A stretch of 64,000 nt of DNA from Thermoplasmata archaeon (GCA_035499455.1 DATJYS010000005.1:551348-615347); one strand, 5' to 3'; positions 14,853 to 64,000 are shown, counted from the stretch's first letter. Notes: generated by a model from the letters alone, not told the origin. Translations and numbers: made by a program.

Positions 14853-14853
14853 G

Positions 14854-24320: not shown

Positions 24321-24470
24321 CGCGGCGTCCGTCGGCGGATCCCCCCGGGCCGAGCGGACTCTCGAGACCGAATCGAGCCTTCCTTGGGAGGGGGAGCGCG
24401 GCGACGTCGGTCGCTTCCGGCCACGCGTCCCGGGCGCGCCGGGACGGTTCGCCCTCCCAGCATAAGTCCC

Positions 24471-24543: not shown

Positions 24544-24573
24544 GCGACGAGGGGCGCCGAGCCGGGTCGGCCG

Positions 24574-44175: not shown

Positions 44176-44266
44176 GCCCGAACGACACGGTCGGACACAA
44201 TACCTCGTCGGCCGGGGCGGTCCACGGGGAAGGTTTTACTCCGGCCCGGCGTGCCCGGGAGGACGT

Positions 44267-47344: not shown

Positions 47345-47444
47345 GGATCCGGGGACGGAGAGGGGCTATTTGAGACCGGAGCGGCGAGCCGCCCTTCCAC
47401 TGCGTCCATACGATTATTAGGCGAAGGCCGGCCAGCGAGCGTCC

Positions 47445-48359
47445 ATGGCGTCGTCGGCGCCGGAGGCACACGGTTCGTCCGTCGGCCGCCGGCCGAAGTG
47501 GCCGACGAACGCCGAACCGGCCGCGCCGTCGTTCAGCGTGACCGACCTGGTCGACCGATTCCAGCGACTGCTCCAGTCGCAGGAGCGCAGCCCCTGCACG
47601 GTGAAGCAGTACGGGCACATCGCCCGCACCTTTCTGGCGTACACCCAGAAGCCCCTCGAGCAGGTGACGATGCGGGACCTGGAAGCGTTCCGCGAGTACC
47701 TCGTGCTGCAGCGTCGCTACTCGAAGAACTCCCTCTACACCACCATCCGGGGGCTCGCGTGCCTCTTCCGCAGCTTCGGGCTCGAGACCGCGGACACGAT
47801 GCAGCCGCCGCGCCGCCCGGAACGCCTCCCGCGCTACCTCACGGAGGAGGAGATGCACCGGCTGTTCGAGGCGGTCAAGGAGTCGGCGCGGGACAGCGCG
47901 ATCGTCCATGTGCTGGCGTTCGGCGGCCTGCGGGTCGGAGAGCTCTGCCACCTGAAGACCGAGGACCTCGAGTTCGAGCGGAACGTCCTCCACGTGCGCT
48001 CCGGCAAGGGCGACAAGGACCGGGAGGTCGTCCTCGAGGAGAGGACCCGAGCCGCGATCGACCGCTACCTCACGGACCGGACCCTCTCGGGGGTCTCCTC
48101 CTCGCGGCTGTTCCCCGTCGGGCCCGTCACGGTCGAGCGGATCGTTCGACGGTCCGCCCAGGCGGCCGGGATCCCCCGGCGCGTGACGCCCCACGTCCTA
48201 CGTCACACGCTCGCGACCGCCCTCCTGTCGCGGGGCTGCGACATCCGCTACATCCAGAAGCTGCTGGGGCACGCTTCCGTGGCGACAACCCAGATCTACA
48301 CGCACGTCGATACGCAGGCGCTGCGGGAAGCGTACCAGCGCGCGAAGCCTGTCTATTAA
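47445..48359 (+). CDS. xerA: tyrosine recombinase XerA-like (phage integrase family)
   Basis: C-terminal catalytic R...HxLRH...Y region (HVLRHTLATALLSRGCDIRYIQKLLGHASVATTQIYTHV). About 300 aa with an N-terminal SAM-like domain. Confidence 0.75.
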   Translation: MASSAPEAHGSSVGRRPKWPTNAEPAAPSFSVTDLVDRFQRLLQSQERSPCTVKQYGHIARTFLAYTQKPLEQVTMRDLEAFREYLVLQRRYSKNSLYTTIRGLACLFRSFGLETADTMQPPRRPERLPRYLTEEEMHRLFEAVKESARDSAIVHVLAFGGLRVGELCHLKTEDLEFERNVLHVRSGKGDKDREVVLEERTRAAIDRYLTDRTLSGVSSSRLFPVGPVTVERIVRRSAQAAGIPRRVTPHVLRHTLATALLSRGCDIRYIQKLLGHASVATTQIYTHVDTQALREAYQRAKPVY

Positions 48360-48386
48360 CCCGACGCGCCCTCGGGCGTCTTCGCG

Positions 48387-49580: not shown

Positions 49581-49598
49581 CGCACCGACGGACCCCGA

Positions 49599-50513
49599 CT
49601 ACGGGGCCCCCGGCGCTCCGCCGGACGGGTCGTCGGCGCGCAGCCGGGCGAGCTTTTCGAGGAACTCGACCCCTTCCCCCGTCGTCATCGGTGTGCCGTC
49701 CTCGCGGGTCAGGGCCAGGCCGGCGCGGGCGCAGGCGCTCTCGGGGGACTGTCCGTCGAGGAGCGCGCGTACGGCGGTCCGTTCCCGCTGCGTGAGGACG
49801 AGGCCCCGGATCTCAAACTCCTCGAACGCCTCGAACGCGATCGGGGCGACCAGGCGGCCCAGCCGGGCCAGCTCGGCCGCGTAGACGCGGATCTCCTCCT
49901 GCGCGTGGAGGTCGAGGCGCAGCGATAGGAAATGGAAGAGATTCCAGAGATTCGTCTTCCAGTACCACTGCGTGTAGTACGAGACCGGGAGGACCAGCCG
50001 GGCGACCTCGCGTGCGACGCCCGCGTTCAGGGCCTTCTCGTACGCCGCGTAAGCGTCCCGCGAGATCCGGTCGAGGTCGTCGCGGAACCGCGCCACGGTC
50101 TCGGGAGGCAGCGGGTCCCCCCGGCCCTGGCGGTTGCGGGTCGACTGGCGGCGGATCGCCTCCGCCGGCAGCAGCTCGTACTCGTCGGGGACGATCGAGT
50201 AGCGCGCGCTCGCCTCGTTGAACGAGCCGGTCCGGTGCCGGATGAACTGGCGCGCGACGAAGATCGGGAGCCGGACGAGGAACTTCAGCTCCACCATCTC
50301 GAACGGAGTCGTGTGGCGGTGGCGCATCAGGTACCGAACGAGCCCGCGGTCGTCGCGGACCGTCTTCGTGCCGCGCCCGTAGGAGACCCGGGCCGCCTGG
50401 ACGATCGCCGCATCGTCCCCCATGTAGTCGACCAGGGCGACGAACCCGTGGGAGAGGACCGGGTGGCGGACCCCGATCTCCCGGTCCGCCGCGGGGGTCG
50501 ACGGGCGAACCAT
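49599..50513 (-). CDS. thyX: FAD-dependent thymidylate synthase ThyX
   Basis: ThyX motif RHRTGSFNEASARY. Start is placed at ATG 50513, with TTTTAT about 45 nt upstream. Confidence 0.8.
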   Translation of the reverse strand: MVRPSTPAADREIGVRHPVLSHGFVALVDYMGDDAAIVQAARVSYGRGTKTVRDDRGLVRYLMRHRHTTPFEMVELKFLVRLPIFVARQFIRHRTGSFNEASARYSIVPDEYELLPAEAIRRQSTRNRQGRGDPLPPETVARFRDDLDRISRDAYAAYEKALNAGVAREVARLVLPVSYYTQWYWKTNLWNLFHFLSLRLDLHAQEEIRVYAAELARLGRLVAPIAFEAFEEFEIRGLVLTQRERTAVRALLDGQSPESACARAGLALTREDGTPMTTGEGVEFLEKLARLRADDPSGGAPGAP

Positions 50514-50622
50514 CGGGGCGTCGGCGTCGGGCACGGGCCCGGAGCGGAGCCCGGTCATAAAACGGCGCGCTCGGCGGCGGGAAAGCGTATAGACCGCCGC
50601 TCGGTCGCACGCGGGGGATCGG

Positions 50623-52884
50623 ATGGCCCGCATCTTCGTCGGGATCGCCTGGCCGTACGCCAACGGTCCGTTCCACATCGGCCAGCTCGCCGGCGCGTTC
50701 CTCCCGGGCGACATCTTCGCCCGGTACCACCGGCTGCGCGGCAGCGAGGTCCTGATGGTCTCGGGCTCCGACATGCACGGGACCCCGGCGCTGGTCACGG
50801 CGGAGCGCGAGGGGGTCTCCCCGGCGGTCGTCACCGAACGGTTCCACGCGGTGAACAAGCGCTCGTTCGAGCGGCTCGGGTTCACGTTCGACCTCTACAC
50901 CCACACGCACACCCCGACGCACGAGCGGACGGTGCAGGAGACGTTCCTCGCCCTCCTCGAGCACGGGTTCGTCCGTCGTCGGACGGAGGAAGGGGCGTTC
51001 TGCCCGAAGCACGCTCGGTTCCTCCCGGACCGCTACCTGCTCGGCACCTGTCCGCACTGCGGCTTCGAGAACGCCCGCGGCGACGAGTGCGACCGATGCG
51101 GCCGCCCGGTCGAGCCCCGTCTCCTCGGGAACGCGCGCTGCTCGCTCTGCGGCACGCCCGCGGAGTTCCGCCCCTCGGAGCACTTCTATCTGGAGCTCGA
51201 CCAGCTCCAGACGCGGCTCGCCGAGTACGTGGCGGCCCAGGGGCACTGGCGAGCCCCGACCCGTCACGTGGCCGAGAACTTCCTCGCGGAGGGGCTTCAC
51301 CCGACCCCGATCACGCGTGACCTCGACTGGGGGGTCCCGATCCCGCTCGAGGGGTACGCGACGAAGCGGTTCTACGTCTGGTTCGACGCCGTCATCGGCT
51401 ACCTTTCCGCCTCGAAGGAGTGGGCGGCGAACGCCGGCCGCCCCGACGCCTGGCGCCGGTTCTGGGACGAGGGCGAATCGGTGCGGTCGTACTACTTCAT
51501 CGGGAAGGACAACCGGTTCTTCCACACGATCATCTGGCCGGGGATCCTCCTCGGCACGACCGGGCTCCAGCTGCCGTACGACGTCCCGGCGAACGAATGG
51601 CTGCTCGTGGGGGGCGGCAAGGTCTCCAAATCGCGCACCGCCGACGCGCAGGCGTTCCTCCCGGCGCTCCTCGACCGGTATCCTCCCGACGTGATCCGGT
51701 TCTACGCGGCCCTGCTCGCGCCCCAGAACCGCGACACCGAGCTCGATTGGACGGAGTTCGACCAGCTGTGGGAGGACTGGCTCGCCAATCAGTACGGGAA
51801 CCTGGTCCAACGCACGCTCGTGCTCGCGCGCGAGCGGTACGGGGGGAAGATTCCGGCCCCGCCCCCGGGCTGGGTGCCGGACGACTCGGCGGGCGTCGGC
51901 GAGCGCCTGCGGGCGGCGCACGCCCGCATCGGCGCCGAGTATGAGGCGGTCCACCTGAAGGAGGCCCTCGACCTCGCGCTCGCGGAGGTCCGGGAGGCGA
52001 ACCGTCGGTTCCACGACGCGAAGCCGTGGGACACCGAGGAGCCGGAGCGGGCGAGGGTCGTCTACGAGACCCTCTGGCGGCTGAAGGCGATCGCGCTCTG
52101 GCTCGCTCCGGTGATCCCGTTCTCCTCGGCCGAGGTGTTCCGCATGCTCGGCTACTCGGGAGTTCCTCCGGACGGGCACTGGGGCGACGCGCTCGTGCCA
52201 CCCCATCCTGGGCAGCCCCTGGGGGAGATCCGGCCGCTGTTCCCGAAGTCGCCCCGAGCCGCGGCGGCTACCCCGAGCCCGCCGACCCCGACGACCGCCG
52301 ATCCCGCGTCCGTTCCGCTCGCGGGCCGCGCCGGGGTCGTGCGGAGCGTCGCGGTCCACCCCTCCGCGGACAAGCTGTACGTGCTGGAGATCGACGTCGG
52401 TGAGGCGTCCCCCCGCACGGTCGTGGCGGGGCTCCGCCCATCGTACGCGCCCGAGGAGCTGACCGGCCGGGGAGTGGTCCTGCTCTCCAATCTCGCGCCG
52501 AGAACGATCCGGCGGATGACCTCGCAGGGGATGGTGCTCGCGGCCGAGGCGGGGGACCGCTCGTCGATCCTCGTACCGCCGGACGGGACCGCGCCCGGAA
52601 CGTACCTGGCCGGGGCCGGATCCGCCGACCGGACGATCTCCTACGAGGAGTTCGCATCGGTCCCGCTGCACATCGGCCGCGTCGTGGGGCCGGACCTGTC
52701 GGGCGGGAGCGAGATCGACCTCGGCGATCGACGGGTCTCGGCGCCCGGGGCCTGGCCGGCCGGAACGCTCTGCGTGGTGCGCCGTCCCGGACCGACGTCC
52801 GACCGGGGAGAGGTGGTCGCGTTCGGCCCGGGCCTCGCCGTGCGACCCCTCGCGGACGTCCCCCCCGGGGCGAAGGTCCGATGA
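50623..52884 (+). CDS. metG: methionine--tRNA ligase with C-terminal tRNA-binding (EMAP/Trbp111-like) domain and additional C-terminal extension
   Basis: Four zinc-knuckle Cys (CPHCG...CDRCG), KMSKS-like KVSKS, and the anticodon-binding and tRNA-binding domains. 753 aa. Confidence 0.9.
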   Translation: MARIFVGIAWPYANGPFHIGQLAGAFLPGDIFARYHRLRGSEVLMVSGSDMHGTPALVTAEREGVSPAVVTERFHAVNKRSFERLGFTFDLYTHTHTPTHERTVQETFLALLEHGFVRRRTEEGAFCPKHARFLPDRYLLGTCPHCGFENARGDECDRCGRPVEPRLLGNARCSLCGTPAEFRPSEHFYLELDQLQTRLAEYVAAQGHWRAPTRHVAENFLAEGLHPTPITRDLDWGVPIPLEGYATKRFYVWFDAVIGYLSASKEWAANAGRPDAWRRFWDEGESVRSYYFIGKDNRFFHTIIWPGILLGTTGLQLPYDVPANEWLLVGGGKVSKSRTADAQAFLPALLDRYPPDVIRFYAALLAPQNRDTELDWTEFDQLWEDWLANQYGNLVQRTLVLARERYGGKIPAPPPGWVPDDSAGVGERLRAAHARIGAEYEAVHLKEALDLALAEVREANRRFHDAKPWDTEEPERARVVYETLWRLKAIALWLAPVIPFSSAEVFRMLGYSGVPPDGHWGDALVPPHPGQPLGEIRPLFPKSPRAAAATPSPPTPTTADPASVPLAGRAGVVRSVAVHPSADKLYVLEIDVGEASPRTVVAGLRPSYAPEELTGRGVVLLSNLAPRTIRRMTSQGMVLAAEAGDRSSILVPPDGTAPGTYLAGAGSADRTISYEEFASVPLHIGRVVGPDLSGGSEIDLGDRRVSAPGAWPAGTLCVVRRPGPTSDRGEVVAFGPGLAVRPLADVPPGAKVR

Positions 52885-53561
52885 CGGCGGAGTTCCGTCT
52901 CGACCTCCACGTCCACAGCGACCGATCTCCCGACTCTCGCCTCTCTCTCGACGCGATCGCCGCCCGCGTCCGTACCCTGGGCCTGAACGGGTTCGCGCTC
53001 ACCGATCATAATACGATCGACGGTTTTCCGGGGTTGCGGGATCTTCAGTCCCGGCACCCCGACCTCGTCGTCGTCCCGGGCGTGGAGGTGTCGACCCACG
53101 AAGGCCACCTCCTGGCCTACGGGGTCGCCTCGCTCCCGCCGATCCGACGGCCGCTCGAGGAGACCGTGCGCTGGATCCGGGACCACGGGGGAGAGGCGGT
53201 GCTCCCCCACCCGTTCCGTTTTTTCCATGGCGTCGGCGAGCGGGCCTCGCAACGGGTCGACATTCGGGCGATCGAGACCCTCAACGGGCAGACCTCCGCC
53301 CACGCGAACCGGGCCGCGGCCGCCGTCGCAGCCCGTCGCCGTTTGGCGGGAACGGGGGGGAGCGACGGCCACACCCTCGCCGGGGTCGGCCGGGCGTACA
53401 CTACGTTTGACCCGGTACCCGCGTCCGCCGAAGACGTGCTCGAGTCGATTCGCCGGGCGACCACGCGGGCAGACGGGGCGTCCCTGGGTGTGGGGGGGCG
53501 ACTCCGGTGGCTGCTCCGCAACGCGGCGCTCCGCAGCGCTCGGGGGTTCCGAGCGATCTAG
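52881..53561 (+). CDS. PHP-domain metal-dependent phosphoesterase
   Basis: HVHSDRSPDS and TDHN histidine motifs. Its ATG overlaps the metG stop (ATGA). Confidence 0.7.
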   Translation: MTAEFRLDLHVHSDRSPDSRLSLDAIAARVRTLGLNGFALTDHNTIDGFPGLRDLQSRHPDLVVVPGVEVSTHEGHLLAYGVASLPPIRRPLEETVRWIRDHGGEAVLPHPFRFFHGVGERASQRVDIRAIETLNGQTSAHANRAAAAVAARRRLAGTGGSDGHTLAGVGRAYTTFDPVPASAEDVLESIRRATTRADGASLGVGGRLRWLLRNAALRSARGFRAI

Positions 53562-53624
53562 TGGGAGCTCCCGCGAACGGGTCAAAAACGGGGCAGGCCC
53601 GCCCGGGCCTGCCCCGACGCGGGC

Positions 53625-54071
53625 CTACAGCCCGAGCTGGAACCCGCCGGAGCCTCCCGCCGAGAAGAGACCCTGGATCGAGTTCCCGAGGGCGGTGAGT
53701 CCGGTCGCCGAAGCGAACGCGGAAAGGGTGCTCGAGACTCCGGGCACTCCCGCGTACGCGGCGGCCGCCACCGAGGCGATCCCCAGGGCGACCCCGAGGG
53801 CCGCCTTGACCGCGATGCTCGCCGTCCATCCGGCCGCGAGCGTACCGCTCCCGGCCGAGGCCGCGAGCGACGTGCCGGCCGCTCCCGCGGCCGACGCCGT
53901 CGCGGCACCGGACGCCGAGCCCGGTGCTCCGGCGGTGCCGCTCGGGGACGGGATCGTCAGCGACCCAGAACCCGACCCGGCGACTGACCCGCTCGCTGCT
54001 CCGGTGCTCCCTCCGGCCGTAGTGCTCGCTCCTGCCATCGCGCTTAGGCTGCTGCTTTCTGTCGCCATCAT
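53625..54071 (-). CDS. possible small Gly/Ala/Ser-rich protein with one hydrophobic helix (very uncertain)
   Basis: 148-aa low-complexity ORF. It may be spurious. Confidence 0.2.
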   Translation of the reverse strand: MMATESSSLSAMAGASTTAGGSTGAASGSVAGSGSGSLTIPSPSGTAGAPGSASGAATASAAGAAGTSLAASAGSGTLAAGWTASIAVKAALGVALGIASVAAAAYAGVPGVSSTLSAFASATGLTALGNSIQGLFSAGGSGGFQLGL

Positions 54072-54195
54072 GGGCGTCTCAGTTCCCCTGGGCGGTCGGG
54101 GCTAGAAGTAATCCGGTACCGTTCCGCCTTCCTCCGGTTGGACATTTCGCCGCGCGGCTGACGGACGGTGCGGCGCCCTTGCCCCCTCTGGAGCG

Positions 54196-54202
54196 CTTTA
54201 AA
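54196..54202 (+). promoter_or_regulatory. TATA box (CTTTAAA) for tRNA-Cys
   Basis: About 28 nt upstream of the tRNA 5' end. Confidence 0.5.
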
Positions 54203-54226
54203 CCCCGTTCGGCTGGGACCCCTCGC

Positions 54227-54299
54227 GCCGAGGTGGCAGAATGGTTAATGCGACAGACTGCAGATCTGTTTCCTGGGGGTTCGATTCCCTCCCTCGGCT
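54227..54299 (+). tRNA. tRNA-Cys (anticodon GCA)
   Basis: GCCGAGGTGGCAGAATGGTTAATGCGACAGACTGCAGATCTGTTTCCTGGGGGTTCGATTCCCTCCCTCGGCT folds with a 7-bp acceptor stem, anticodon stem ACAGA/TCTGT, loop CTGCAGA and T-loop TTCGATT. Confidence 0.85.
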
Positions 54300-54326
54300 G
54301 GATTTTCAGGGCGAGTCCGTGCCAGA

Positions 54327-54596
54327 TTATCGGAAGCGCTGATAGAATCCTGCCCGCGGTCCGAAGGTCAGGAAGTCGCAGCGACCTCGCCCGTCGAAGC
54401 GGAAGACCGCCCGGTATTCTCCCACGGCAAGCCGGTGGAGCGACCTCGAGCCCCGGATCGCGACAATGTCGAGGTCGCGAATCGGAAGAGTTCGAGCCGC
54501 ATCGAGCCGGGAAAGCGCGCCCAGGAAAGTGCGACGAATCCTTTCCGGCAGGAGCTCCAGCTCGCGCTGAGCCGCCTCCCGGACCGTGACTTCCAT
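54327..54596 (-). CDS. RelE/ParE-family type II toxin
   Basis: 89-aa ORF with RelE/ParE C-terminal signature (YRAVFRFDGRGRCDFLTFGPRAGFY). Confidence 0.7.
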   Translation of the reverse strand: MEVTVREAAQRELELLPERIRRTFLGALSRLDAARTLPIRDLDIVAIRGSRSLHRLAVGEYRAVFRFDGRGRCDFLTFGPRAGFYQRFR

Positions 54597-54826
54597 CAGG
54601 CTTTGGCGCGACGCGCAGCCAACCTTCGCCGCACTTCGGTGAGTTCCAGCGGGGGCGACTCACGGAGCCGGCGCTCCATCTCCTTGAGAAACGACTCCGG
54701 GGGGAACTGCTCGACGAACTCTTCGATCACGTTCTCGTAGGTTTGGCCGGGCCGCTTGTACAACTCCAAGACTCGACGAGTCGACTCGTGGACTTGGATC
54801 GAGGTCAGCGCATCGGTTCCGGACAC
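54596..54826 (-). CDS. cognate antitoxin (76 aa)
   Basis: Overlaps the toxin start by 1 nt. GTG start at 54826, directly downstream of a palindromic operator. Confidence 0.5.
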   Translation of the reverse strand: MSGTDALTSIQVHESTRRVLELYKRPGQTYENVIEEFVEQFPPESFLKEMERRLRESPPLELTEVRRRLAARRAKA

Positions 54827-54832
54827 ACGACT

Positions 54833-54849
54833 TCTATGGTATCCATAGA
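54833..54849. promoter_or_regulatory. perfect palindrome TCTATGG-TAT-CCATAGA: putative autoregulatory operator/promoter of the toxin-antitoxin operon
   Basis: 7-3-7 inverted repeat 7 nt upstream of the antitoxin start, overlapping an AT-rich TATA-like stretch (GATATCTAT on the minus strand). Confidence 0.5.
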
Positions 54850-55077
54850 TATCACCGTTTCGCAGCGCGGCTCTTGGTCAATGGCCTGTCCTCCCCGGCT
54901 GCCTCCCCGGTGGCCAGCGAACTACCCCAGTCAGAAATCGCCGCGCGGCGTCATGCCCCCATCTATCGGACCGCACCTGCCCCCTAAGGACTCGAATGGA
55001 TCGACGAGTCGAACTACGCCCAAGACTCCAAGAGCCCGCCTTGGTTAGATTCAAGGCACACTACAGGTCTCATCAAC

Positions 55078-55581
55078 ATGGACGCCCAACAGACCTCCAC
55101 TAACGGAAAAATCCGGGCCTCCATGACCGAGGTACGTGTTCGGCTCGGAGCATTCGGCTGCGCGCTGGGGGCGGTCATGTCCGCGCTCTTTGTGCGGGTG
55201 TTTTACCCGTCGTTCTCTCCGTCCGTCTGGGGTCTGATCGCGTCTGGCTGGATAGGGACGATCCTGGGATGCTGGCTTTTACAACGTGACATTGCAGCGT
55301 ACGTCGAAGTCAGCGAGGCCGGCGTGACACTCGGATCTCCACGCCCCCGACCGGGCAGGGCGAATCATGTCCTCATTCCTTGGAAGGGCTTCAGGATGCT
55401 CGGCGCAAACAAACTGAATGTTCGGCTTGGAATCTTTCCATTCATCACCTCGGACCCATACCTGCCAGTGAATCTGACATACAGGCAGGCGAGAGCGGTC
55501 ATGAGTCACCCTTTGTTCCCGATCAAGGAGCGACCACCCTGGCTAGTTGCTCGACTCGGTCTACGGGGGCCGACCTACTGA
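55078..55581 (+). CDS. membrane protein with two TM helices and a bacterial PH-like (bPH_2/DUF304-like) domain
   Basis: 167-aa ORF in the lower-GC island. Family assignment is tentative. Confidence 0.4.
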   Translation: MDAQQTSTNGKIRASMTEVRVRLGAFGCALGAVMSALFVRVFYPSFSPSVWGLIASGWIGTILGCWLLQRDIAAYVEVSEAGVTLGSPRPRPGRANHVLIPWKGFRMLGANKLNVRLGIFPFITSDPYLPVNLTYRQARAVMSHPLFPIKERPPWLVARLGLRGPTY

Positions 55582-55923
55582 AGGTTCAACAACCAAGTCC
55601 GTCCGGGATTGAGATCTTCGCTCACGTGAGGGTCCTATCCTGAGTTGCATCTACGTCCTTCGGTTCATCGGTGAGCACGGTCGTATCCCCGCGGGGCAGA
55701 ACGGCTACGGGCAAGTTGCACTTTGTGTTGGCTGCTGTGCCGGTCCGGAGGCAATTGAATCCCGAGGTGAACTGCTACTACGGGATTGACCTGGAGGCGA
55801 AGCGACCCCGAGAGTGCCAGCGAATCCCGACCCTTCCTTACAGAGGCCAAGTTTAGAATGCCGCCACTCCCGAGCGTCTTTTGAATGGGGCTGCCCCAGC
55901 AGCATCGGAACCGAACTTTCCGA

Positions 55924-55944
55924 CGATACCCTCCCTCGGCTGGA
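55924..55944 (+). repeat. direct repeat copy 2 of the tRNA-Cys 3' end (att-like)
   Basis: CGATACCCTCCCTCGGCTGGA against tRNA CGATTCCCTCCCTCGGCTGGA. One mismatch over 21 nt. Confidence 0.7.
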
Positions 55945-56449
55945 ATTCATCAACGCGTCGCCGCGGCGGGATGCTCGAGCCTTCCGAAGGAGCAGCGAAC
56001 GACGCACGGTCCTCGCGACCGCCCTAGGGCGCGATCGCGTACGATTGACCCCATCGACCGGACGCTGCGTCCGAAAGGGGATGGGTCTCCAGCGTGCTCT
56101 CGTGGAGCGGCCCATACGTCCTCTGGCCCAGCCGCTCCGCTACCTACCGCATCCCGGTCCAGGTGCGCCGGTTGCCAGGCGCTCGGAGATTCCGTCAACG
56201 AACGTCCTTCCCATTGCTGGGCTTTGACGGTCAGATCTCCCTCGATCGTCGCCGCTTCTCGGTACGCTTCCGCGAGTGTCTCGGGAACTCGGCTTCTTCG
56301 AACGCTCGATGGCGCCTCCGCCGAACCCGTCTCACCCCGTCTCAAGAAGGACGAATGGCCCGAACCCCGGAAGCTCGAGCCGCGAGTCGGCGCGCTTGGA
56401 GCACAATCGAAATGTAGTGATGGCTAATTATTAGGACGACCTATTTATA

Positions 56450-56902
56450 ATGCCCGGCCGTGGGGGGCGCATGGAGCCGCTCCAGAAGCTGACCCGTCGA
56501 CAAGTCGAGACCCTGCAAAGCATTCGGCTCCTCGAAACACCGGAGCGGGGCGCACCGCTGAAGCGGATCGCGGCATCGATGCATGTCAGCGCCCCGTCGG
56601 CGTTGGGCCACGTTACTCCGCTCGAGGGGCTCGGACTGGTCGAACGATATCGGGGGAAAAGTCGCCTCACGGCCCGGGGGCGCGGGACGCTTCTCGAGTA
56701 TCAACGACATCACCGCGTCGCAGAGAGCATGTTCGGTCGTCTCGGGCTCCCTCCTTCCGAGACCTGCGCCGCGGCGCGCGAGATCGATCTCGCGATCTCC
56801 CACCGCACCGTCGAGGACGTGTGCCGGGCGCAGGCCCACCCGACGACGTGTCCTCACGGTGAGCCGATTCCAGCGTGTTCTAGCGACCAGGGAGGTCACT
56901 GA
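56450..56902 (+). CDS. DtxR/MntR-family metal-dependent transcriptional repressor
   Basis: N-terminal winged HTH (LTRRQVETLQSIRLL...LKRIAASMHVSAPSALGHV) followed by a dimerisation/metal-binding domain. Confidence 0.65.
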   Translation: MPGRGGRMEPLQKLTRRQVETLQSIRLLETPERGAPLKRIAASMHVSAPSALGHVTPLEGLGLVERYRGKSRLTARGRGTLLEYQRHHRVAESMFGRLGLPPSETCAAAREIDLAISHRTVEDVCRAQAHPTTCPHGEPIPACSSDQGGH

Positions 56903-56904
56903 CG

Positions 56905-58116
56905 ATGGCGGCCAACACCCCTCCCCCGGGAGAACTCGACCCGGCGTCGTCCGCGCCCTTCGGAGGGAGTCCGCCGGGCACGACATCCCCGGGCGCCGGC
57001 GCTCGCCGAAAGTCCGGCCGAAAGGCCATGTCGACGATGACGATTGTCGGGATCGTGGCGGTCATCGCCATCCTCGTCGGGAGCGCGACCGCGTACGAAC
57101 TTTTGACCAGCAAGGCCCCCGGCAACCCCTGCGCCGCCTTCACGCCCCAGCAGCTCGGCGCGGACCCCACGGCGGGTCAAGTCTCGGGCAACACGACCCC
57201 GAACTACGCGATCGCGACCACCCTCACGAACGGGCCCCTCCAAACGGTGCCCAATGGCACAACGATCCAAGTGGTCGCGGGGGAGAACTTCTGGGGGAGT
57301 CTCATCAGTCAGCTGGGCGGGAACCTGACGACGGTGCTCAGCATTGTGAGCGACCCGAACGCCGACCCGCATGACTACGAGGCGAACCCCGCGGATGCGG
57401 CCGCGATTGCCCACGCGAATCTCGTGGTCGTCAACGGGGTCGGCTATGACGATTGGGCGCTCCAGCTGATCTCGTCGTCGGACAGTGCGGGGCAGGAAGT
57501 ATTGAACGTCGGCCACCTGAACGGCGTCTATGTCACGGGTGGAATCGTCACGGGCAATGAACACCAGTGGTACAACCCGCTCTACGTGAACCACACGCTG
57601 CTGGCGATGTACTACGATCTCGTCGCCCTCCAACCGGAGTCGAAGGCGATTTTCCAGCACAACTTCGCCAACCTCAACACCTCCGCGGGCGCCGGTGGAG
57701 GGGTCTCGATCGACCAGCTCTACGCCCGCGCCCACCAGATCAAAGAGGAGTTCGCCGGCACGGCCGTGGTCTCCACCGAGAGCATCTTCGTCTACCTTGC
57801 CAACTACACCGGACTCGACCTGATTTCTCCCCCGGAGTTCATGGAGGCGATCGCGGAAGGGAACGATCCGCCCGCGGCCAGCGTTGCGTTGTTCGAGTGT
57901 CAGATCGAGGGCGGGTACGTGCATGTGCTCGTGTACAACATCCAGACGGTGACCCCGATCACGACCATCCTCGAGGGGCTCGCGGGAGAGCACAACGTGA
58001 CGAGCACTTACGTGAGCGAGACGATCCAGCCCCCCGACACGAGCTTCCAGGACTGGATGTACGGGGAGTACAACAGCCTCTACAACGCGCTCAACGCGAG
58101 ACAGTTGGGAATGTGA
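56905..58116 (+). CDS. metal (Mn/Zn/Fe) ABC transporter substrate-binding protein, TroA/ZnuA cluster A-I type, with N-terminal membrane anchor
   Basis: DPHDYEANPADA matches the DPHxWxxP motif of ZnuA/TroA. N-terminal TM segment MSTMTIVGIVAVIAILVG. Many N-x-S/T sequons. Confidence 0.75.
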   Translation: MAANTPPPGELDPASSAPFGGSPPGTTSPGAGARRKSGRKAMSTMTIVGIVAVIAILVGSATAYELLTSKAPGNPCAAFTPQQLGADPTAGQVSGNTTPNYAIATTLTNGPLQTVPNGTTIQVVAGENFWGSLISQLGGNLTTVLSIVSDPNADPHDYEANPADAAAIAHANLVVVNGVGYDDWALQLISSSDSAGQEVLNVGHLNGVYVTGGIVTGNEHQWYNPLYVNHTLLAMYYDLVALQPESKAIFQHNFANLNTSAGAGGGVSIDQLYARAHQIKEEFAGTAVVSTESIFVYLANYTGLDLISPPEFMEAIAEGNDPPAASVALFECQIEGGYVHVLVYNIQTVTPITTILEGLAGEHNVTSTYVSETIQPPDTSFQDWMYGEYNSLYNALNARQLGM

Positions 58117-58122
58117 CCGCGA

Positions 58123-59010
58123 GTGGACGCTGAGTTTCCCCTCCACCCTCCGGTCTACCGATCGCCGGAGGGTGGCCCCGCCGTGGGCGGCCCGACCTCG
58201 ATCAGCGCGGAGCGCGTGGAGGTGCGGTATCGGAACAAGCTCGTATGGAAGGATGCGACGTTCGACATCCGACCCGGCGAGTTCGTCGCGGTCATCGGCC
58301 CGAACGGAGCGGGGAAGACAACGCTCTTCCGGATGCTGCTCGGGCTCCACTGGCCGTCGAGCGGCGCGCTGACGGTCTTCGGCGCCCGCCCCCGCCGCGG
58401 GAACTATCGCATCGGCTATGTCCCGCAACGGCACACGCTCGACAAGGAGACCCACCTCGAGTGCGACAAGCTCGTGCGCCTGGCCTATCCGGGGACCCGG
58501 TGGGGTCCGGGGAAACGCTGGCGGCCCTTGCAGTGGGGTCCCCGATTCAACCTGGCGGCGGAACGCGACGCGGCCGCGCAGGCGCTCGAGGACGTCGGGG
58601 CGCCCGACCTCGGGACCAAAGCGCTGGGCGCGCTCTCCGGCGGAGAGCTTCAGCGGATCTTCCTCGCCGAAGCGTTGGTGGGCAACCCGGACATGCTCCT
58701 GTTGGACGAGCCACTTTCTAACCTGGACCTGCGCCGGAGCCGGGAACTGGTCGAGACGATCCACGGGGTGGTCCGCTCCCGCGGGGTGACGACCCTCCTC
58801 GTCGCGCACGACATCAACCCGATGATCAAGTGTCTGAACAAAGTGATCTACATCGCCAACGGCAAGGTCGCCGTGGGGACCCCGGACGACGTCCTCACCT
58901 CGGCGCGACTGTCGGAACTGTACGGGGTCCCCGTGGAAGTGCTCCACGATTCCCGGGGCAACATCGTGATCGTCGGCGGAGAGGACGATCGCGGCGAGGA
59001 GGGCGCATGA
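58123..59010 (+). CDS. metal ABC transporter ATP-binding protein (ZnuC/TroB-like)
   Basis: Walker A (GPNGAGKTT), signature (LSGGELQR), Walker B (LLLDEP). Confidence 0.8.
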   Translation: MDAEFPLHPPVYRSPEGGPAVGGPTSISAERVEVRYRNKLVWKDATFDIRPGEFVAVIGPNGAGKTTLFRMLLGLHWPSSGALTVFGARPRRGNYRIGYVPQRHTLDKETHLECDKLVRLAYPGTRWGPGKRWRPLQWGPRFNLAAERDAAAQALEDVGAPDLGTKALGALSGGELQRIFLAEALVGNPDMLLLDEPLSNLDLRRSRELVETIHGVVRSRGVTTLLVAHDINPMIKCLNKVIYIANGKVAVGTPDDVLTSARLSELYGVPVEVLHDSRGNIVIVGGEDDRGEEGA

Positions 59011-60497
59011 GCGGCGGGGGATGGAGTGGGATTCCCTGGAGTTGGAACCTGTTCACCGACATTCGGCTCCTCTGGTCGTACGAATTCATGCGCAATGCGA
59101 TCGAGGCCGGGACGATCATCGCGATCCTCGCCGGCATCATCGGCTACTTTGTGGTCCTCCGCCGTTCGGCCTTTGCCAGCCACGCGCTGGGCCATACCGG
59201 ATTCTCGGGGGCTGCGGCCGCGGTCCTCGTGGGGGTCCAGCCGGTGTACGGTCTGCTGATCTTTACGATGGCGACCGGGAGCGGGATGGCCGTCCTGGGA
59301 AACCGAGCGTCGAGTAGAGATGTCGAGATCGGCACGGTGCTCGCCTTCGCCCTGGGACTCGGACTGCTGTTCCTCAGCCTCTACCGCGGGTACGCCCAGG
59401 AGGCGTACTCGATCCTCTTCGGGGAGGTGCTGGGCATCAGCACCGCCCAGGTCGCCTTCACGTTCTGGTCGAGCCTCTTGGTCCTGGCGCTCCTGACGCT
59501 CATCTACCGCCCGCTCCTGTTCTCCTCGCTGGACGAAGATGTCGCGGAGGCGAAGGGAATGCCCCTGTTGCTCCTCAACCTCGCGTTCATGCTCGTCCTC
59601 GCCGTGGCGATCTCCTTTGCCGTCCAGATCATCGGCGTCCTGCTGATCTTTGCGTTGATGGTGACGCCCGCGGCCATCGCCGTGCGGTTGACCTCGCGAT
59701 CCCTCTGGGCCGTGATCGTCTCCGTGTTCGTGGCCGTCACCGCCGTCTGGGCAGGACTGTTCGTCGCGCTGTGGACGAACTACCCGGCGAGCTTCTTCAT
59801 CGTGGGCATCATCTTCGTGGAGTACGTGTGCGTCCGGGGCGTGGGCTCCCTGCGGGAGACGGCCCTCCTGCAGGGGGTCGAAGCCCCCGAAGGCGACGGG
59901 GTGCGATCGCTCCGGAACGCGTCCCTCATCGCCTCGGTCTCCCAGGTCTTGTTCGTCGTTGGGGCCGCCCTACTGACCCTGGCGCTCCTCGCGCATCCGG
60001 GGGGGGCCTGGGACCCCGGTCAGCTCTACGCGCGAGCGTCGTGGGCGATCCTCGCTCTCGCGTCGGCGGGGATCCTCGGAGCGGCCGCCTCCCTCCTGTA
60101 CTTCTCCGGCTTTCGGAAGATGTCCACGGCCTCGCGGGAGTTCATCAACCCGGCGTTCCTCACGCTCGTAGGCCTTCTCGGGATCGCCCTCACCGCCGGG
60201 GGGCTCGGCCTCTTCCTCTCGGGAGTGGCCCTCGCCGCCTCCGCCTACGGGCTCGCTCCCGTGGCCGAGCTGTTCGGCGTTCCGCTGGTCTTCCTGGGGG
60301 CGATTCTTTCCGTGGTCGGCCTCGTCGGCCAGGCCGTGGGAAGCTGGCGGATGGGACTGCGATACCAGGAGCGCGCGCTCCGGACCGGCGCGGTCCTCAT
60401 GGTCCTCCCGCTCGTGGGCTACGGGGTGACGTACCTCGGCTATCGACGGGCGCTCGCGCGCGGTCCGGCCCCCCCGCAGTCGGGCCCGCTCGAGTAG
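59007..60497 (+). CDS. metal ABC transporter permease (ABC-3/ZnuB-TroC family) with about 200-aa additional C-terminal membrane domain
   Basis: Its ATG overlaps the ATPase TGA (ATGA). The first ~290 aa resemble ABC-3 permeases. The remainder adds at least five predicted TM helices. Confidence 0.7.
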   Translation: MSGGGWSGIPWSWNLFTDIRLLWSYEFMRNAIEAGTIIAILAGIIGYFVVLRRSAFASHALGHTGFSGAAAAVLVGVQPVYGLLIFTMATGSGMAVLGNRASSRDVEIGTVLAFALGLGLLFLSLYRGYAQEAYSILFGEVLGISTAQVAFTFWSSLLVLALLTLIYRPLLFSSLDEDVAEAKGMPLLLLNLAFMLVLAVAISFAVQIIGVLLIFALMVTPAAIAVRLTSRSLWAVIVSVFVAVTAVWAGLFVALWTNYPASFFIVGIIFVEYVCVRGVGSLRETALLQGVEAPEGDGVRSLRNASLIASVSQVLFVVGAALLTLALLAHPGGAWDPGQLYARASWAILALASAGILGAAASLLYFSGFRKMSTASREFINPAFLTLVGLLGIALTAGGLGLFLSGVALAASAYGLAPVAELFGVPLVFLGAILSVVGLVGQAVGSWRMGLRYQERALRTGAVLMVLPLVGYGVTYLGYRRALARGPAPPQSGPLE

Positions 60498-60670
60498 CGG
60501 CTCGGACGTGCCCCGGTGCCGCGCCGCGCGGCATGCACGGTCGGAGCCAACCGCGGGTCGAATCGCAGAAGAGCCGTGGGTCGCCTATCGAGAGGGCCCC
60601 CCGGCTCGACCGAAATCGCGGCGGCCCAATGCGGGACGCTCGGGGCCGTGTTCGGAGACGAACGTTTCGA

Positions 60671-60690
60671 CGATTCCCTCCCTCGGCTGG
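60671..60690 (+). repeat. direct repeat copy 3 of the tRNA-Cys 3' end (att-like)
   Basis: Exact 20-nt match to 54282..54301. Confidence 0.75.
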
Positions 60691-60818
60691 TGTTTCTCCC
60701 CGGATTCTGGAGAGCCCACGCCGCAGCGTTCCCGCGGCGGTCCGGGTGCTCCCGCTTCCTCCCCAAAGCTCGCATGGGGGCAGGGCTCCCGGAACCGGGT
60801 GGGAGTCCGGAACGGAGA

Positions 60819-61223
60819 TCAGCCCGCCGTAGAATGAGCTCTCAACTCCAGCACCGCTCCCACGCTCCCGAGTACGACCAGAGTTCCGAGCGTGATGTAG
60901 AGGACCGAGACCCAGAGGGGAAGACCACCTCCTACCTCGAGACTCGGCCGAGCGCTCACGACGATCCGAAGCCCCACGCCCACGACCCCCAACGCCGCGG
61001 CGCCGGCAAACCCCCAGACGCTGCGTCGCCAGCAGAGGACGAGGCACGTCACGATCAGAACGACGATCGGCGCGACCACGACCACCGCGAGGAGCCGAAC
61101 CGGCGGGAGCGTTTCGGCGACGGTGATCGCGAGGGCCGTGATCACGGCCGCTAAGTACAGGCCGAGGAGCACGAACGCCGCACGCATGCGCGAGGAGAGT
61201 GGCTCGACGGGTCCCATGGGCAC
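60819..61223 (-). CDS. small membrane protein (about 4 TM), hypothetical
   Basis: 134-aa hydrophobic ORF. Confidence 0.35.
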   Translation of the reverse strand: MPMGPVEPLSSRMRAAFVLLGLYLAAVITALAITVAETLPPVRLLAVVVVAPIVVLIVTCLVLCWRRSVWGFAGAAALGVVGVGLRIVVSARPSLEVGGGLPLWVSVLYITLGTLVVLGSVGAVLELRAHSTAG

Positions 61224-61393
61224 AGAACCAGCCCACCCACCTGCGTACCTTAACGAGCATCGGTCCGGACGGAGGCCGGGGCGGTCGGTCGTGCCGACGG
61301 TCTTCTGGGGTCGAGGAGGAGCCGGGGGAGCCGCCGGCGCGCCAGTGTCGCGCGGGGCCCCGATGCGAAACTATGGCGGGAGAGGAGTGCGCG

Positions 61394-61801
61394 TCAGACG
61401 CGCTGGCCGAATCTCCACCCCTTCTTGTCGATGACGTCGAAGAGATTGCCGTCGGGGTCGCTCAGTGTGACAAAGTCGTGCGCTTCGTCCGCCGGTCGCT
61501 TCACCGTCGCTCCGATACGGAGGAGGCGCTGGACCTCAGCGTCGGGATCGGACGAGTAGAGGTCCAGGTGGATCCGGTAGTCGTCCAACGGCCCCTCTGT
61601 GGTCCGGGAGAGGGAGAGATTGGGTCCCTGGCCCTCGGGGTCTTTGAGGACGACGCCGTCCGCTTCGGGCGGATCCCGGGGGACGTAGTGAAGCGCCTCC
61701 TGCCAAAAGGCGATCATACGGGGAAGATCGGTGCAGTCCACGACGATCGAGCCGACCCAGATTCGACCGGTCTCCCCCGACGAGGATCGCGCGCTCGACA
61801 T
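61394..61801 (-). CDS. VOC/glyoxalase-family protein
   Basis: GSIVVDCTDLPRMIAFWQEAL and DPDGNLFDV are typical VOC beta-alpha-beta-beta-beta elements. Start is placed at Met 61801. Confidence 0.55.
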   Translation of the reverse strand: MSSARSSSGETGRIWVGSIVVDCTDLPRMIAFWQEALHYVPRDPPEADGVVLKDPEGQGPNLSLSRTTEGPLDDYRIHLDLYSSDPDAEVQRLLRIGATVKRPADEAHDFVTLSDPDGNLFDVIDKKGWRFGQRV

Positions 61802-62077
61802 CGCTCCGTCCTGCGAGCGGCCGACACGTGCCACCTAGAAGAGCGCCTCGCAGAGAGGGCCCGAAGGGAAGGGGTCGTGTACCCGCTCGAAGGTTCCGCA
61901 AGAACGCCCGATCTCGTTACTGGAGGCTAGGCGTCGTTCACGGCCGCGAATCCGAAGGAGTCCGTCGTGGCCGATCCGCCCTGGGCCGGCAGCTCTCGGC
62001 GAAGCGTGCTCAGCCATGGGCGGGAGCGTCAGATACTCCGTCCCCTCGCATCCAGGGCCACGGCCCTTTGAATGAGT

Positions 62078-62353
62078 TCACGAACTGCGGGGGGAGCCGG
62101 CGTGGGCGACGCTCGTGATCTTCACGTGGCGCAGGGACTTCCCGGTGCCCTCCACGATGGAGAAGGACCGGGCGAGCTCCGCCCCTCGCCAAAGTCCGAG
62201 ATTGAGGTGGTCCGAATAGACCATCAAGCAGAAGACAAGGTTGCGCCCTCGCCAGTTGGGAGCGTTCCACTTCACGCACTCCTCGAGGTCCGGCGCGAGC
62301 GTATGGATCGCCCGCGGGAGCGCGCGGGCGATTCGTTGCATTTCGGCGGGCAT
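62078..62353 (-). CDS. DUF1801 (YdhG-like) domain protein, short
   Basis: VKWNAPNW...NLVFCLMVYSDHLNLGLWRG resembles DUF1801. Start is placed at Met 62353. Confidence 0.35.
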   Translation of the reverse strand: MPAEMQRIARALPRAIHTLAPDLEECVKWNAPNWRGRNLVFCLMVYSDHLNLGLWRGAELARSFSIVEGTGKSLRHVKITSVAHAGSPRSS

Positions 62354-62527
62354 CCCGCCGATGATCGAGTCCACTCCGGAGTCCCTGTTGCCGGAACGCG
62401 ACACGGACTCCGAACCGCACCCCCTCACTTCATGCCGGGGAGACGCCGGACTCGAACGCGGCGCGCTGAGATCCACTCGACGAGATCAACCTGAAGACGT
62501 TTTCATGGAAGCGAGCTCGGGTGGGCC

Positions 62528-63574
62528 GTGGCCGAGAGCCAGCCGCCGGACACGGTCATCGATGCCCAGGACCTCCGCATGGTCTACCCGCCCGCCAAGT
62601 CGGGGGGAACCGGAACGGTCGCCGTCGATGGCGTGAGCTTTCAGGTGCACCGGGGCGAGATCTTCGGGCTCCTGGGGCCGAACGGCGCGGGCAAGACGAC
62701 GACGATATCGATCCTGACCACGCTCATCAAGGCGACCGCCGGGCACGCTCGCATCGAGGGGATCGACGTGCTCGAACGTCCCCACGATGTGCGGCGGAAG
62801 ATCGGTCTCGTCTTCCAGAAGTCGACGGCCGACGAGGAGCTCACGGGTCGGGAGAATCTGAGCATCGAAGCCGGACTCTACGGGCTCTCCGGGGCCGGGA
62901 TCGCGTCGCACGCGACCGAGCTGCTGAACCAGATGGACCTCGGCTCGTTCGCGGACCGCCTGGTGAAGACGTACTCCGGGGGGATGCGCCGCCGGCTCGA
63001 GCTCGCCGTCGGGATCGTCCACAATCCCCGCCTGCTCTTCTTGGATGAGCCCACGCTCGGGCTGGACCCGCAGGGCCGCGCGGGGTTCTGGCGGTACATC
63101 CGCTCCCTCCGGGAGGGCAAGGGGCTGACCGTGCTGATGACGACGCACTACCTGGACGAGGCGGACCAGCTCTGCGACCGGATCGCCGTCGTCGACCACG
63201 GCAAGATCATCGCGCTCGGAGCCCCGAAGGAGCTCAAGGAGAGCCTCGGAGGGGACACGCTCGAGCTCTCGGTGGGGGCCGGGGCCGCGGATCCCACGCC
63301 GGTGTTGAAGGCCCTCCCGGGCGTGACGACCGTTGCGCGCAAGGGGGACACCTACCGGGTGAAGTGCTCCAACGGACAGTCGCTCGTCCCCAAGGCGGTG
63401 ATGGCCGCCGCCCAGGCCGGAGTGGACATCACCGGGGCGACCGTGATCACGCCGACGTTGGACGAGGTGTTCCTGGAGCTCACCGGACGCTCCTATCGGG
63501 AAGAGGGAGACGTACCGGATCGGGAGGACGGTTCCGAAAGCGAGCCGGCTCCGGCGACCGGAGGGGCGGCATGA
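62528..63574 (+). CDS. ABC transporter ATP-binding protein (ABC-2/DrrA-like)
   Basis: Walker A (GPNGAGKTT), signature (YSGGMRRR), Walker B (LFLDEP). GTG start at 62528. Confidence 0.8.
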   Translation: MAESQPPDTVIDAQDLRMVYPPAKSGGTGTVAVDGVSFQVHRGEIFGLLGPNGAGKTTTISILTTLIKATAGHARIEGIDVLERPHDVRRKIGLVFQKSTADEELTGRENLSIEAGLYGLSGAGIASHATELLNQMDLGSFADRLVKTYSGGMRRRLELAVGIVHNPRLLFLDEPTLGLDPQGRAGFWRYIRSLREGKGLTVLMTTHYLDEADQLCDRIAVVDHGKIIALGAPKELKESLGGDTLELSVGAGAADPTPVLKALPGVTTVARKGDTYRVKCSNGQSLVPKAVMAAAQAGVDITGATVITPTLDEVFLELTGRSYREEGDVPDREDGSESEPAPATGGAA

Positions 63575-64000
63575 TGCTGCCCGCCTTCTCCCTCATCCGA
63601 CGCGAGTACCTGCGGTGGATCCGGGCCCCGACCTGGGTGATCTCCGGGCTCATGAGCCCGATCCTGTATCTCCTTCTGTTCGGCCAGGCGTTCGACCTCG
63701 GGAAGCTGCTCCCGGCTGGAACGCCGCCGGGTGTTCTGGCGCAGGTGCTGTCCGGCGCCCCGAACTACTTCTCGTACTTCGCGGTCGGGATGGTGGCGTT
63801 CGCGAGCGTCACCGCGGCGATGTTCTCCGGGACCGGGATCATCTTCGACAAGCAGCTCGGGATCCTCCAGCGCATCCTCTCCACGCCGATCTCGCGCCGC
63901 TCCGTCTTCCTCTCTTCCCTGGTGTTCCGGGGGATGCTGACGCTCATCCCCGCCTTCCTCGTCGTGGGGTTCGCCTTCCTGCTCGTCCACGTGCCGGGGG
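63571..64000 (+). CDS. ABC-2-type transporter permease (partial, runs off the window end)
   Basis: Its ATG overlaps the upstream TGA (ATGA). Hydrophobic N-terminus. Confidence 0.6.
   Translation, partial: MMLPAFSLIRREYLRWIRAPTWVISGLMSPILYLLLFGQAFDLGKLLPAGTPPGVLAQVLSGAPNYFSYFAVGMVAFASVTAAMFSGTGIIFDKQLGILQRILSTPISRRSVFLSSLVFRGMLTLIPAFLVVGFAFLLVHVPG

Follow-up and report, generated by a model that had tools for sequence, protein, structure and literature searches.

A high-GC (70.4%) soil Thermoplasmata archaeon carries, downstream of its tRNA-Cys(GCA) gene, an array of three short gene cassettes delimited by copies of the tRNA 3' end, none of which encodes a recombinase. The array lies at positions 54227 to 60690 of a 64,000-nt stretch of DNA (the window; GCA_035499455.1 DATJYS010000005.1:551348-615347), which belongs to a metagenome contig of 602 kb (ENA ERZ27256576, k141_2018769). 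The reading towards which we lean, with modest confidence, is that integrase-less cassettes have accreted at the tRNA-Cys 3' end by site-specific recombination and that the recombinase is encoded elsewhere. The site that ends the cassettes, an arm followed by a core, is also found downstream of tRNA-Cys in at least six other Thermoplasmata species, as well as on three short metagenome contigs that contain no tRNA.

The tRNA-Cys repeats and the arm and core site

The tRNA gene is intact (54227..54299, + strand; found by ARAGORN and scoring 65.1 bits with the Rfam tRNA model) and has no encoded CCA. From the T-loop to 2 nt beyond the tRNA 3' end runs the 20-mer CGATTCCCTCCCTCGGCTGG, which a pattern search places exactly at 54282-54301 on the + strand as core copy 1, an attL-type junction inside the 3' part of the tRNA. 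The same 20-mer is encountered twice more on the + strand, as copy 2 at 55924-55943 with one mismatch (T>A at position 5) and as copy 3 at 60671-60690, which is exact. An earlier sequence-only reading of this DNA had reported the tRNA-Cys 3' end in three direct copies and had considered a chance origin of the 20-nt repeats essentially impossible. Re-inspection recovers all three copies, and chance can be set aside given that 0.03 matches are expected and that three were reached in 0 of 100 dinucleotide shuffles. An intact tRNA at one end and a displaced same-strand 3' fragment at the other are what Islander-type criteria (PMC4383910) look for, and the proposal that the copies arose as att-type junctions through site-specific recombination at the 3' end of tRNA-Cys is supported. 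As for the other tRNA of the window, tRNA-Lys CTT (24469-24544, minus strand), its 3' end has no second copy in the window, nor does the GC content fall locally.

The composition of the DNA between the repeats is deviant as well. The GC content is 60.3% for 54300-55923 and 66.7% for 55944-60670, compared to 71.2% for the reference stretch 1-54226, and both inter-repeat segments lie below the minimum of any equally long interval within the first 54 kb. The GC profile across 54-61 kb therefore puts the two segments under the range of the host DNA upstream, as had been anticipated, while the 57-62% previously given for them is accurate for the first segment and applies to the second one only in parts. 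From 60691 to 64000 the GC content is 67.7%.

The two copies that lie outside the tRNA share 19 additional nt upstream of the core (TCGGARMCGAACKTTYCGA), which the tRNA does not have, and the resulting 39 nt are 87% identical. Before each non-tRNA core stands an arm motif, tCGGAAyCGAAC..TTCGA, which has no counterpart in the 5' two-thirds of the tRNA. Site 2 consists of a proximal arm, TCGGAACCGAACTTTCCGA (55905-55923, + strand, delimited by comparison of copies 2 and 3), followed by core copy 2, CGATACCCTCCCTCGGCTGG, and the whole site matches the site profile with an nhmmer E-value of 3e-16. Site 3 (60504..60690, + strand) is made of a long arm at 60504-60670 and the exact core, the arm being recovered with an arm profile (nhmmer E 1e-22), and is the last recognisable att junction in the window. 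Long arms of ~150 nt define a subfamily formed by window copy 3, three sites of the related locus L009, one of L015 and one of L018. The arm of site 3 is alignable with these other arms, which precede unrelated cargo; across the subfamily, pairwise identities are 42-71% and profile E-values 1e-22 to 1e-42. The long arm starts 6 nt past the stop codon of the Znu permease gene in the window and 16 nt past that of a hemerythrin-like gene in L009. Furthermore, a left end of ~60 nt after the core is common to window copy 2, the L009 tRNA, L009 site 3 and L015 site a; after window copy 2 it starts with AATTCATCAACGCGTCGCCGCGGCGGGATGCTCGAGCC, a P'-like segment. Added up, the arm, the core and the left end span roughly 240 bp, about as much as a complex attP.

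The proximal arm also contains, as GGAAyCGAAC, the reverse complement of a tRNA T-loop/T-stem, GTTCGrTTCC (55905-55930 in the window, and all related sites). Hence, arm and core face each other as a 7-bp inverted repeat, GGAAYCG...CGATTCC, whose halves are ~10 bp apart. Repeated GGAATCG-like motifs of the arm type were considered too, and their excess is modest (11 against 4.2) and mostly due to one conserved position. A structured RNA or an attC-like hairpin was rejected: no Rfam family matches, nine sites on both strands show no excess folding energy (z -1.6 to +1.4), and the RNAalifold consensus folds are weak and lack a favourable covariation term (+2.8 and +0.12 kcal/mol).

In order to find related loci, genomes were scanned for the 20-mer with one genome per species, which gave eight Thermoplasmata loci, and metagenomes were scanned for the arm and core pattern, which gave five more. 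The closest loci come from soil and peat Thermoplasmata metagenome-assembled genomes. Each related locus was oriented by its own tRNA before the nhmmer search with the site profile, and the sites always lie on the tRNA strand, downstream of tRNA-Cys. Good sites have E-values of 1e-12 to 1e-19 and decayed ones of 1e-4 to 0.1. Two good sites and a weak one are present in L006/L018, three in L009/L040, two in L002, one in L007 and one to two in L011/L012. Sites are likewise present on the short contigs L013, L014 and L015, the last of which has two, 2.8 kb apart. In more distant relatives the tRNA is present and no sites were found; L017, L021 and L024-L035 have no array.

The cassettes and the variable DNA downstream of tRNA-Cys

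The array of the window reads, from the tRNA, a toxin-antitoxin (TA) cassette, a cassette with a 167-aa gene, site 2, a Znu cassette and site 3. The first cassette holds a gene for an 89-aa RelE-like toxin (54327-54596, minus strand) and one for a 76-aa putative antitoxin (54596-54826, minus strand), which overlap by one base, 54596. For the 89-aa protein, the three top PDB matches all belong to the archaeal RelE toxins (1wmi, 3bpq and 9g12) and are full length but weak (E 0.05-0.4); Pfam, NCBIfam and PADLOC give no match for it, and a homologue search of a 5.8-billion-protein index returned only the protein itself. The 76-aa protein has a weak, sub-threshold match to DUF7557 (E 0.0014). A TA-like pair is thus present where the sequence-only reading had placed a TA module, on the weak evidence of these matches. 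Orthologs of the 89-aa and 76-aa genes, with 79% and 89% amino acid identity, occupy the same position in L006/L018. The alignment with L006 runs from upstream of the tRNA to window position 54871 at 75.7% nucleotide identity, while the housekeeping flank is 77.5% identical over 4.4 kb. With a divergence that equals that of the flank, the TA cassette was probably inherited vertically and probably existed already in the common ancestor.

This TA cassette has a terminal site of its own, which is vestigial. Pairwise alignment with L006 5150-5245 reveals an arm, GGACCGCACC...AAGGACTCGAATGGATCGACGA, at 54968..55007 (+ strand), whose core is lost; the profile search gives a weak match at 54981-55010 (nhmmer E 0.1-0.6). 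The homology with L006 ends exactly at the boundary between arm and core, and the orthologous cassette of L006 ends in an exact site. The vestigial site is the ortholog of the one that closes this TA cassette in L006/L018, a sister species. Because of this separate terminal arm, the window holds three cassettes instead of the two elements that had been counted before.

The second cassette carries a gene for a predicted membrane protein of 167 aa (55078..55581, + strand, from the ORF list) with a GC content of 59% and a GC3 of 67%. Pfam, NCBIfam and PADLOC give no match for the protein. Seven distant homologues of comparable length (159-187 aa; E-values from 5e-17 to 3e-4) turned up among 1.84 billion representatives, which makes the gene probably real. 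The source pipeline called neither this ORF nor the MntR/DtxR-like gene of the third cassette.

The third cassette opens with a non-coding left end (55944..56449), recognised by left-end similarity and empty in a six-frame Pfam search, and then carries a four-gene operon on the + strand. The operon consists of an MntR/DtxR-like repressor gene (from 56450 or more likely 56471 to 56902; Pfam, with the NCBIfam MntR/DtxR match below cut-off), a ZnuA-type binding protein (56905-58116), an ABC ATPase (58183-59010) and an ABC-3 permease with a C-terminal DUF973 (59007-60497), with assignments from Pfam and NCBIfam. The Pfam E-values are 5e-32 for the binding protein, 4e-28 for the ATPase, 9e-50 for the permease and 3e-14 for the regulator. 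A cluster A-I (ZnuA/MntC-type) importer and a DtxR/MntR repressor are thus found in one operon, which is a predicted metal importer, and the metal-uptake operon with its own repressor that had been described earlier is confirmed. With regard to the start of the repressor gene, an AT-rich, TATA-like box, TTTATAA, read from the sequence at 56444-56450, overlaps the ATG at 56450, and the homologous proteins in L036 and L038 have a length of 143 aa. The start is therefore probably the second ATG at 56471, 21 nt downstream, and the transcript probably leaderless.

The same four-gene Znu operon exists in L036 and L038 at ~80% nucleotide identity (80-86% amino acid identity for ZnuA), in unrelated neighbourhoods with no sites. 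The homology is limited to window positions 56420-60472 and stops inside the cassette ends; cargo and ends therefore have separate histories. In both loci the fusion of the permease to DUF973 (~190 aa) is kept (L036 12088-13587 and L038 12234-13721). In L036 a guanylate-cyclase/TPR gene (14689-16206) neighbours the operon as well as two small genes and one for a DDE transposase.

In the related arrays the sites bound other cargo. In L018 the same RelE-like pair is followed by a 5.1-kb ars operon with an ArsR-type HTH protein, a methyltransferase, an LMW phosphatase and an ACR3/SBF transporter. In L009/L040 a prenyltransferase/cyclase-like gene comes first, accompanied by GNAT and PNPOx-like genes; an alpha/beta hydrolase gene is next, and a hemerythrin-like one is last. 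L007 has a pair of the AbrB/PIN type (VapBC-like), recognised from its translations alone, and L013 another small pair, a membrane protein stands next to the long arm in L015, and L002 and L011 hold a guanylate-cyclase/TPR gene. The latter lies at 4957-6969 in L002 and at 6282-8243 in L011, and a truncated remnant of it is seen right after the tRNA in L017 (~11500-12100). The smallest cassette, in L006, is only 0.77 kb and amounts to a TA pair plus a site. Overall, the view that the inter-repeat DNA is compositionally deviant accessory cargo is supported.

The boundary at tRNA-Cys is sharp. On its upstream side, the ~10 kb before the tRNA are strictly syntenic in all relatives, with a conserved block comprising L21e, Pus10, DUF6015, PrsW, 3HCDH, TtuA-like, XerA, DAO, ThyX, MetRS, PHP and tRNA-Cys, while the DNA after the tRNA is different in each; the locus is hence hypervariable between relatives. 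In the comparison of 42881-54226 with L017, L018, L021, L030 and L040, ~11 upstream genes are shared and no downstream gene is, and the upstream synteny holds though MetRS is only 58-79% identical to that of the window.

On its downstream side, the variable DNA does not end with the array. The segment 60691..64000 holds a 134-aa membrane protein, a Glyoxalase_6 protein and a DUF1801/DUF5655 protein, all on the minus strand, and a DrrA-type (DrrAB) ABC exporter on the + strand (Pfam); no site was detected in it by nhmmer, and the genes after copy 3 have no match in L002-L015, L017, L018, L021 and L040. The variable DNA runs on past the window to ~64.4 kb, and the first gene that has an ortholog in this flank of a relative is a prenyltransferase/cyclase-like gene at ~64.5-65.5 kb, whose product shares 83% amino acid identity with that of the gene next to the end of the L009/L040 array. 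Position 60690 is therefore the last junction and not the end of the variable DNA, contrary to the island end drawn there before. In L004, orthologs of the genes at ~71-73 kb sit 1.1 kb from the tRNA. A clean empty site, in which the tRNA would be followed directly by the DNA beyond 60690, was not found among the related syntenic loci; all that was seen is that the ~23 nt after copy 3 resemble the L010 tRNA trailer (17/23), a likeness that would fit copy 3 as a terminal attR and lends weak support to an empty site.

Origin of the array and competing explanations

Neither the ORFs of the window's cassettes nor a six-frame translation of 55582-56449 shows a recombinase in Pfam, and tblastn with XerA returns nothing. 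The absence of a recombinase from the segments is thus corroborated, and the gap 55582..56449, where fragments of an integrase pseudogene might have been expected, is empty by the same searches. No integrase or fragment of one was found either in any of the related cassettes, in the ~10-17 kb downstream of the arrays where reading went that far, or in the DNA read downstream of tRNA-Cys over ~3.5 kb (L017) to ~19 kb (window genome), a set that covers the window genome, L018, L040, L021, L024-L031 and L017. Two hidden forms were considered and rejected. No integrase pseudogene lies in the non-coding stretches of L009 and L015, the L009 stretch having turned out to hold the GNAT and PNPOx-like genes. 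As for a split integrase of the SSV type, the reading frames that run across copies 2 and 3 match no family and have a non-coding composition, and the 0.77-kb cassette is too small.

According to the reading that we favour, a cassette end would be an attP-derived junction made of an arm of ~25 nt (~150 nt in one subfamily) and a core of 20-29 nt that repeats the tRNA without change between the T-loop and a point slightly beyond the 3' end, and some cassettes would also begin with the ~60-nt left end. The enzyme would most likely be a tyrosine recombinase, supplied by a helper element or by another locus targeting the same site. Recombination of the site of an incoming circle with the tRNA copy or a distal copy would regenerate the tRNA and leave one more core, and the cassettes would ride in and stay behind through accretion and partial excision. 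Such cis-mobilisation has been proposed for the CIMEs of streptococci (PMC5704250) and, in a similar form, for islands growing beside tRNAs in Prochlorococcus (bioRxiv 10.1101/2020.12.28.424599). The repeats, the site family and its confinement to tRNA-Cys and to a single orientation, the unrelated cargo, the lack of recombinase genes and the hypervariability are observations; the mechanism, the helper and any present mobility are inferred. The RelE-like TA pair next to the tRNA is the oldest of the cassettes and may help to keep the array stable. Since the ends are shared across unrelated cargo, the cassettes are compact and recombinases are consistently absent, helper-dependent cassettes are favoured over random decay; moreover, a conserved site on unrelated cargo in several species argues against the simple random decay of two islands.

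Several observations weigh against this helper-dependent reading. No helper or integrase-bearing element with the same site was found in nine genome loci, five metagenome loci, four viral-contig scans and the extended loci, and the genome and metagenome scans gave integrated copies only, with no circular form or attP junction. No presence or absence of a site-bounded cassette between strains was seen, L018/L019/L020 and L040/L041 being identical in their arrays. Many sites across the loci are degenerate, cassette 1 of the window has no core, and the TA cassette, judging from its divergence, appears to have been immobile since the species split. In addition, the comparison involves a handful of genomes, each over 8-20 kb. 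Among the candidates discarded in these searches are the results of four IMG/VR pattern scans for a helper, which gave nothing or one chance match inside a coding region of L039, and an indel among strains carrying P0079, which was taken up as a possible cassette polymorphism and is unrelated to any site.

The sequence-only reading had left the choice between decayed remnants and mobilisation in trans. Whereas mobilisation by a helper is now preferred and simple random decay disfavoured, the loss of integrases stays a serious rival, which we regard as possible and on the unlikely side. In this explanation, two or three integrase-encoding elements (plasmids or proviruses) inserted successively into tRNA-Cys and lost their integrase and backbone through deletion, the segments have become fixed islands that no longer move, and the arms reflect a common attP ancestry. 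Integrase loss after integration and tandem integration have both been reported for archaeal elements (PMC8371274); the degenerate sites, the lost core of cassette 1 and the flank-like divergence of the TA cassette are what decay would leave, no evidence of current mobility was found, and the DNA beyond 60690 is variable yet without att copies. However, decay needs an independent and clean loss of the integrase in more than ten cassettes of at least six species with both ends kept, and no pseudogene fragments occur in any gap examined. The compactness of the cassettes, whose arms abut the stop codons of the cargo and one of which measures only 0.77 kb, also speaks against it, as does the cargo of cassette 3, a chromosomal operon typical of the lineage and not the backbone of an element.

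A broader possibility, which we consider rather unlikely, is that a dedicated gene-capture system operates in a clade of soil Thermoplasmata, with the tRNA-Cys 3' end as a fixed docking site, cassettes defined by nothing but their ends of ~50-240 bp (arm, tRNA-like core and left end), and a recombinase, a host enzyme such as XerA or an unseen specialised one, that would insert, shuffle and excise them while never being in the cassette; it would be a tRNA-anchored analogue of integrons independent of IntI and attC.

The only tyrosine recombinase near the array is XerA (47445..48359, + strand), which scores 242 bits with NCBIfam recomb_XerA_Arch (cut-off 220) and lies ~6 kb upstream, with four housekeeping genes between it and the tRNA. 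The sequence-only reading had pointed to this gene as the nearest tyrosine recombinase; its presence and distance stand, and it is judged to be a housekeeping gene and not part of the element. That XerA itself inserts and excises the cassettes, on an integron-like host platform or as in integrative mobile elements exploiting Xer (IMEX), with tRNA-Cys in the role of attI, seems improbable to us. In every relative examined XerA does keep its place with respect to tRNA-Cys, archaeal XerA can catalyse integration in vitro without partners (PMC8371274), and TA-bearing cassette arrays recall chromosomal integrons. However, the XerA block is equally present in the array-less L017, L021 and L024-L035, and the score of XerA against the integron-integrase model is 150.9 for a cut-off of 265. 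A dif site has two ~11-bp inverted arms and a 6-bp spacer (PMC2958812), while the site described here has no such 11-6-11 architecture, only 7-bp inverted arms 10 bp apart, shows no attC-like fold signal and targets a tRNA gene. Furthermore, cassette genes occur on either strand and the cassettes bring regulators of their own. XerA/dif mimicry of the IMEX kind was accordingly discarded, and as XerA is a housekeeping equivalog that also occurs without arrays and the site has no dif dyad, a role for XerA receives no specific support.

A non-mobile repeat, whether an RNA processing or termination signal, a small structured RNA or the leftovers of tRNA duplication, is very improbable, for although the arm holds the T-loop reverse complement, small hairpins can be drawn and the core includes the T-rich tRNA trailer, no Rfam family, excess folding or favourable covariation was obtained, cargo genes point either way with respect to the site, the arm bears no resemblance to the 5' two-thirds of the tRNA, and the copies coincide with the edges of compositionally deviant, strain-variable DNA.

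Relation to known systems and further observations

Tandem islands linked to a tRNA and integrase-less segments flanked by att sites are already known kinds, and documented mechanisms include accretion at att copies as well as att-flanked elements that lack an integrase (PMC5704250; bioRxiv 10.1101/2020.12.28.424599; PMC8371274). Closest in arrangement are the cis-mobilisable elements (CIMEs) of streptococci (Pavlovic 2004; Bellanger 2011; reviewed in PMC5704250), which are likewise tandem segments flanked by att sites at a tRNA 3' end and devoid of recombination and transfer genes, as are the cassettes of the window. In CIMEs, the distal att copy is open to newly arriving elements and mobilisation depends on an integrase-bearing neighbour. 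CIMEs are, however, decay products of identifiable integrative and conjugative or integrative and mobilisable elements and their cognate element is known, whereas none was found in the loci scanned here; the present host is moreover an archaeon, the cassettes measure 0.7-5 kb and the family is recognisable only by its ends.

The tycheposon islands of Prochlorococcus (bioRxiv 10.1101/2020.12.28.424599; later in Cell) are similarly hypervariable from a tRNA onwards and contain scattered partial tRNA repeats. They also carry nutrient-uptake cargo including metal homeostasis, are leftovers of transient integrase-bearing elements, and reach the conserved flank only after a stretch without att copies. 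In Prochlorococcus, integrase-carrying elements exist in hundreds of copies, whereas here none was found; in L006 and the window the oldest shared cassette is tRNA-proximal, unlike in Prochlorococcus, and the domain of life differs, as would the recombinase. Archaeal plasmids and proviruses integrated at tRNAs ('suicidal' SSV, pTN3/SNJ2-type; PMC8371274, PMC7253208) leave the same direct repeats of the tRNA 3' end, and tandem integrations and integrase-less elements have been noted among archaeal integrated elements (PMC8371274, PMC7253208). In contrast to those, the present array has no split int(N)/int(C), integrase, replication or virion genes and contains ordinary metabolic and resistance operons. 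Integrons, bacterial or archaeal (Ghaly et al. 2022, PMC9668308), offer the same small recombinase-less cassettes with a terminal site at a fixed locus, TA cassettes included. Unlike in integrons, there is no IntI by the insertion site and there are no attC hairpins, the cassettes hold multi-gene operons with regulators of their own and have genes on both strands, and insertion is at a tRNA end. Finally, the integrase that Islander-type criteria (PMC4383910) place within an island is missing from the array of the window. In a limited literature search, we found no description of an archaeal family of tiny cassettes, spread over several species and known only by arm and core with or without a left end, nor of such cassettes stacked at one tRNA without a cognate integrase.

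Little is understood of gene flow among uncultured soil archaea, and for Thermoplasmata only few mobile elements are known. The locus represents a recurrent, site-specific route by which metal-uptake, arsenic-resistance, TA and further accessory genes are stacked at one tRNA in several species. If the cassettes are still mobile, they would form a helper-dependent archaeal cassette system and point to an undiscovered integrase or helper; if they are relics, the arm and core motif would be a precise marker for the growth of tRNA-adjacent islands in this lineage. In either case the conserved ends offer a concrete substrate for biochemistry.

The tRNA-Cys locus shows two further features in relatives. 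In L003, a TnpB/IS605 OrfB-like gene (4576-6105, matching Cas12f1-like_TNB and OrfB_IS605) lies ~0.7-2.3 kb past tRNA-Cys and adjoins a homologue of the 76-aa antitoxin-like gene, which directly follows the tRNA; a different kind of mobile element therefore uses the same hotspot. Within the conserved upstream block, ThyX of the window (49599-50885, called as 319 aa) has no Intein_splicing or HNH match, and in L024-L029, loci of one related species (5326-7608 in L024), ThyX measures 606-785 aa and has weak Pfam matches to both Intein_splicing and HNH, so that ThyX in this species may contain an intein.

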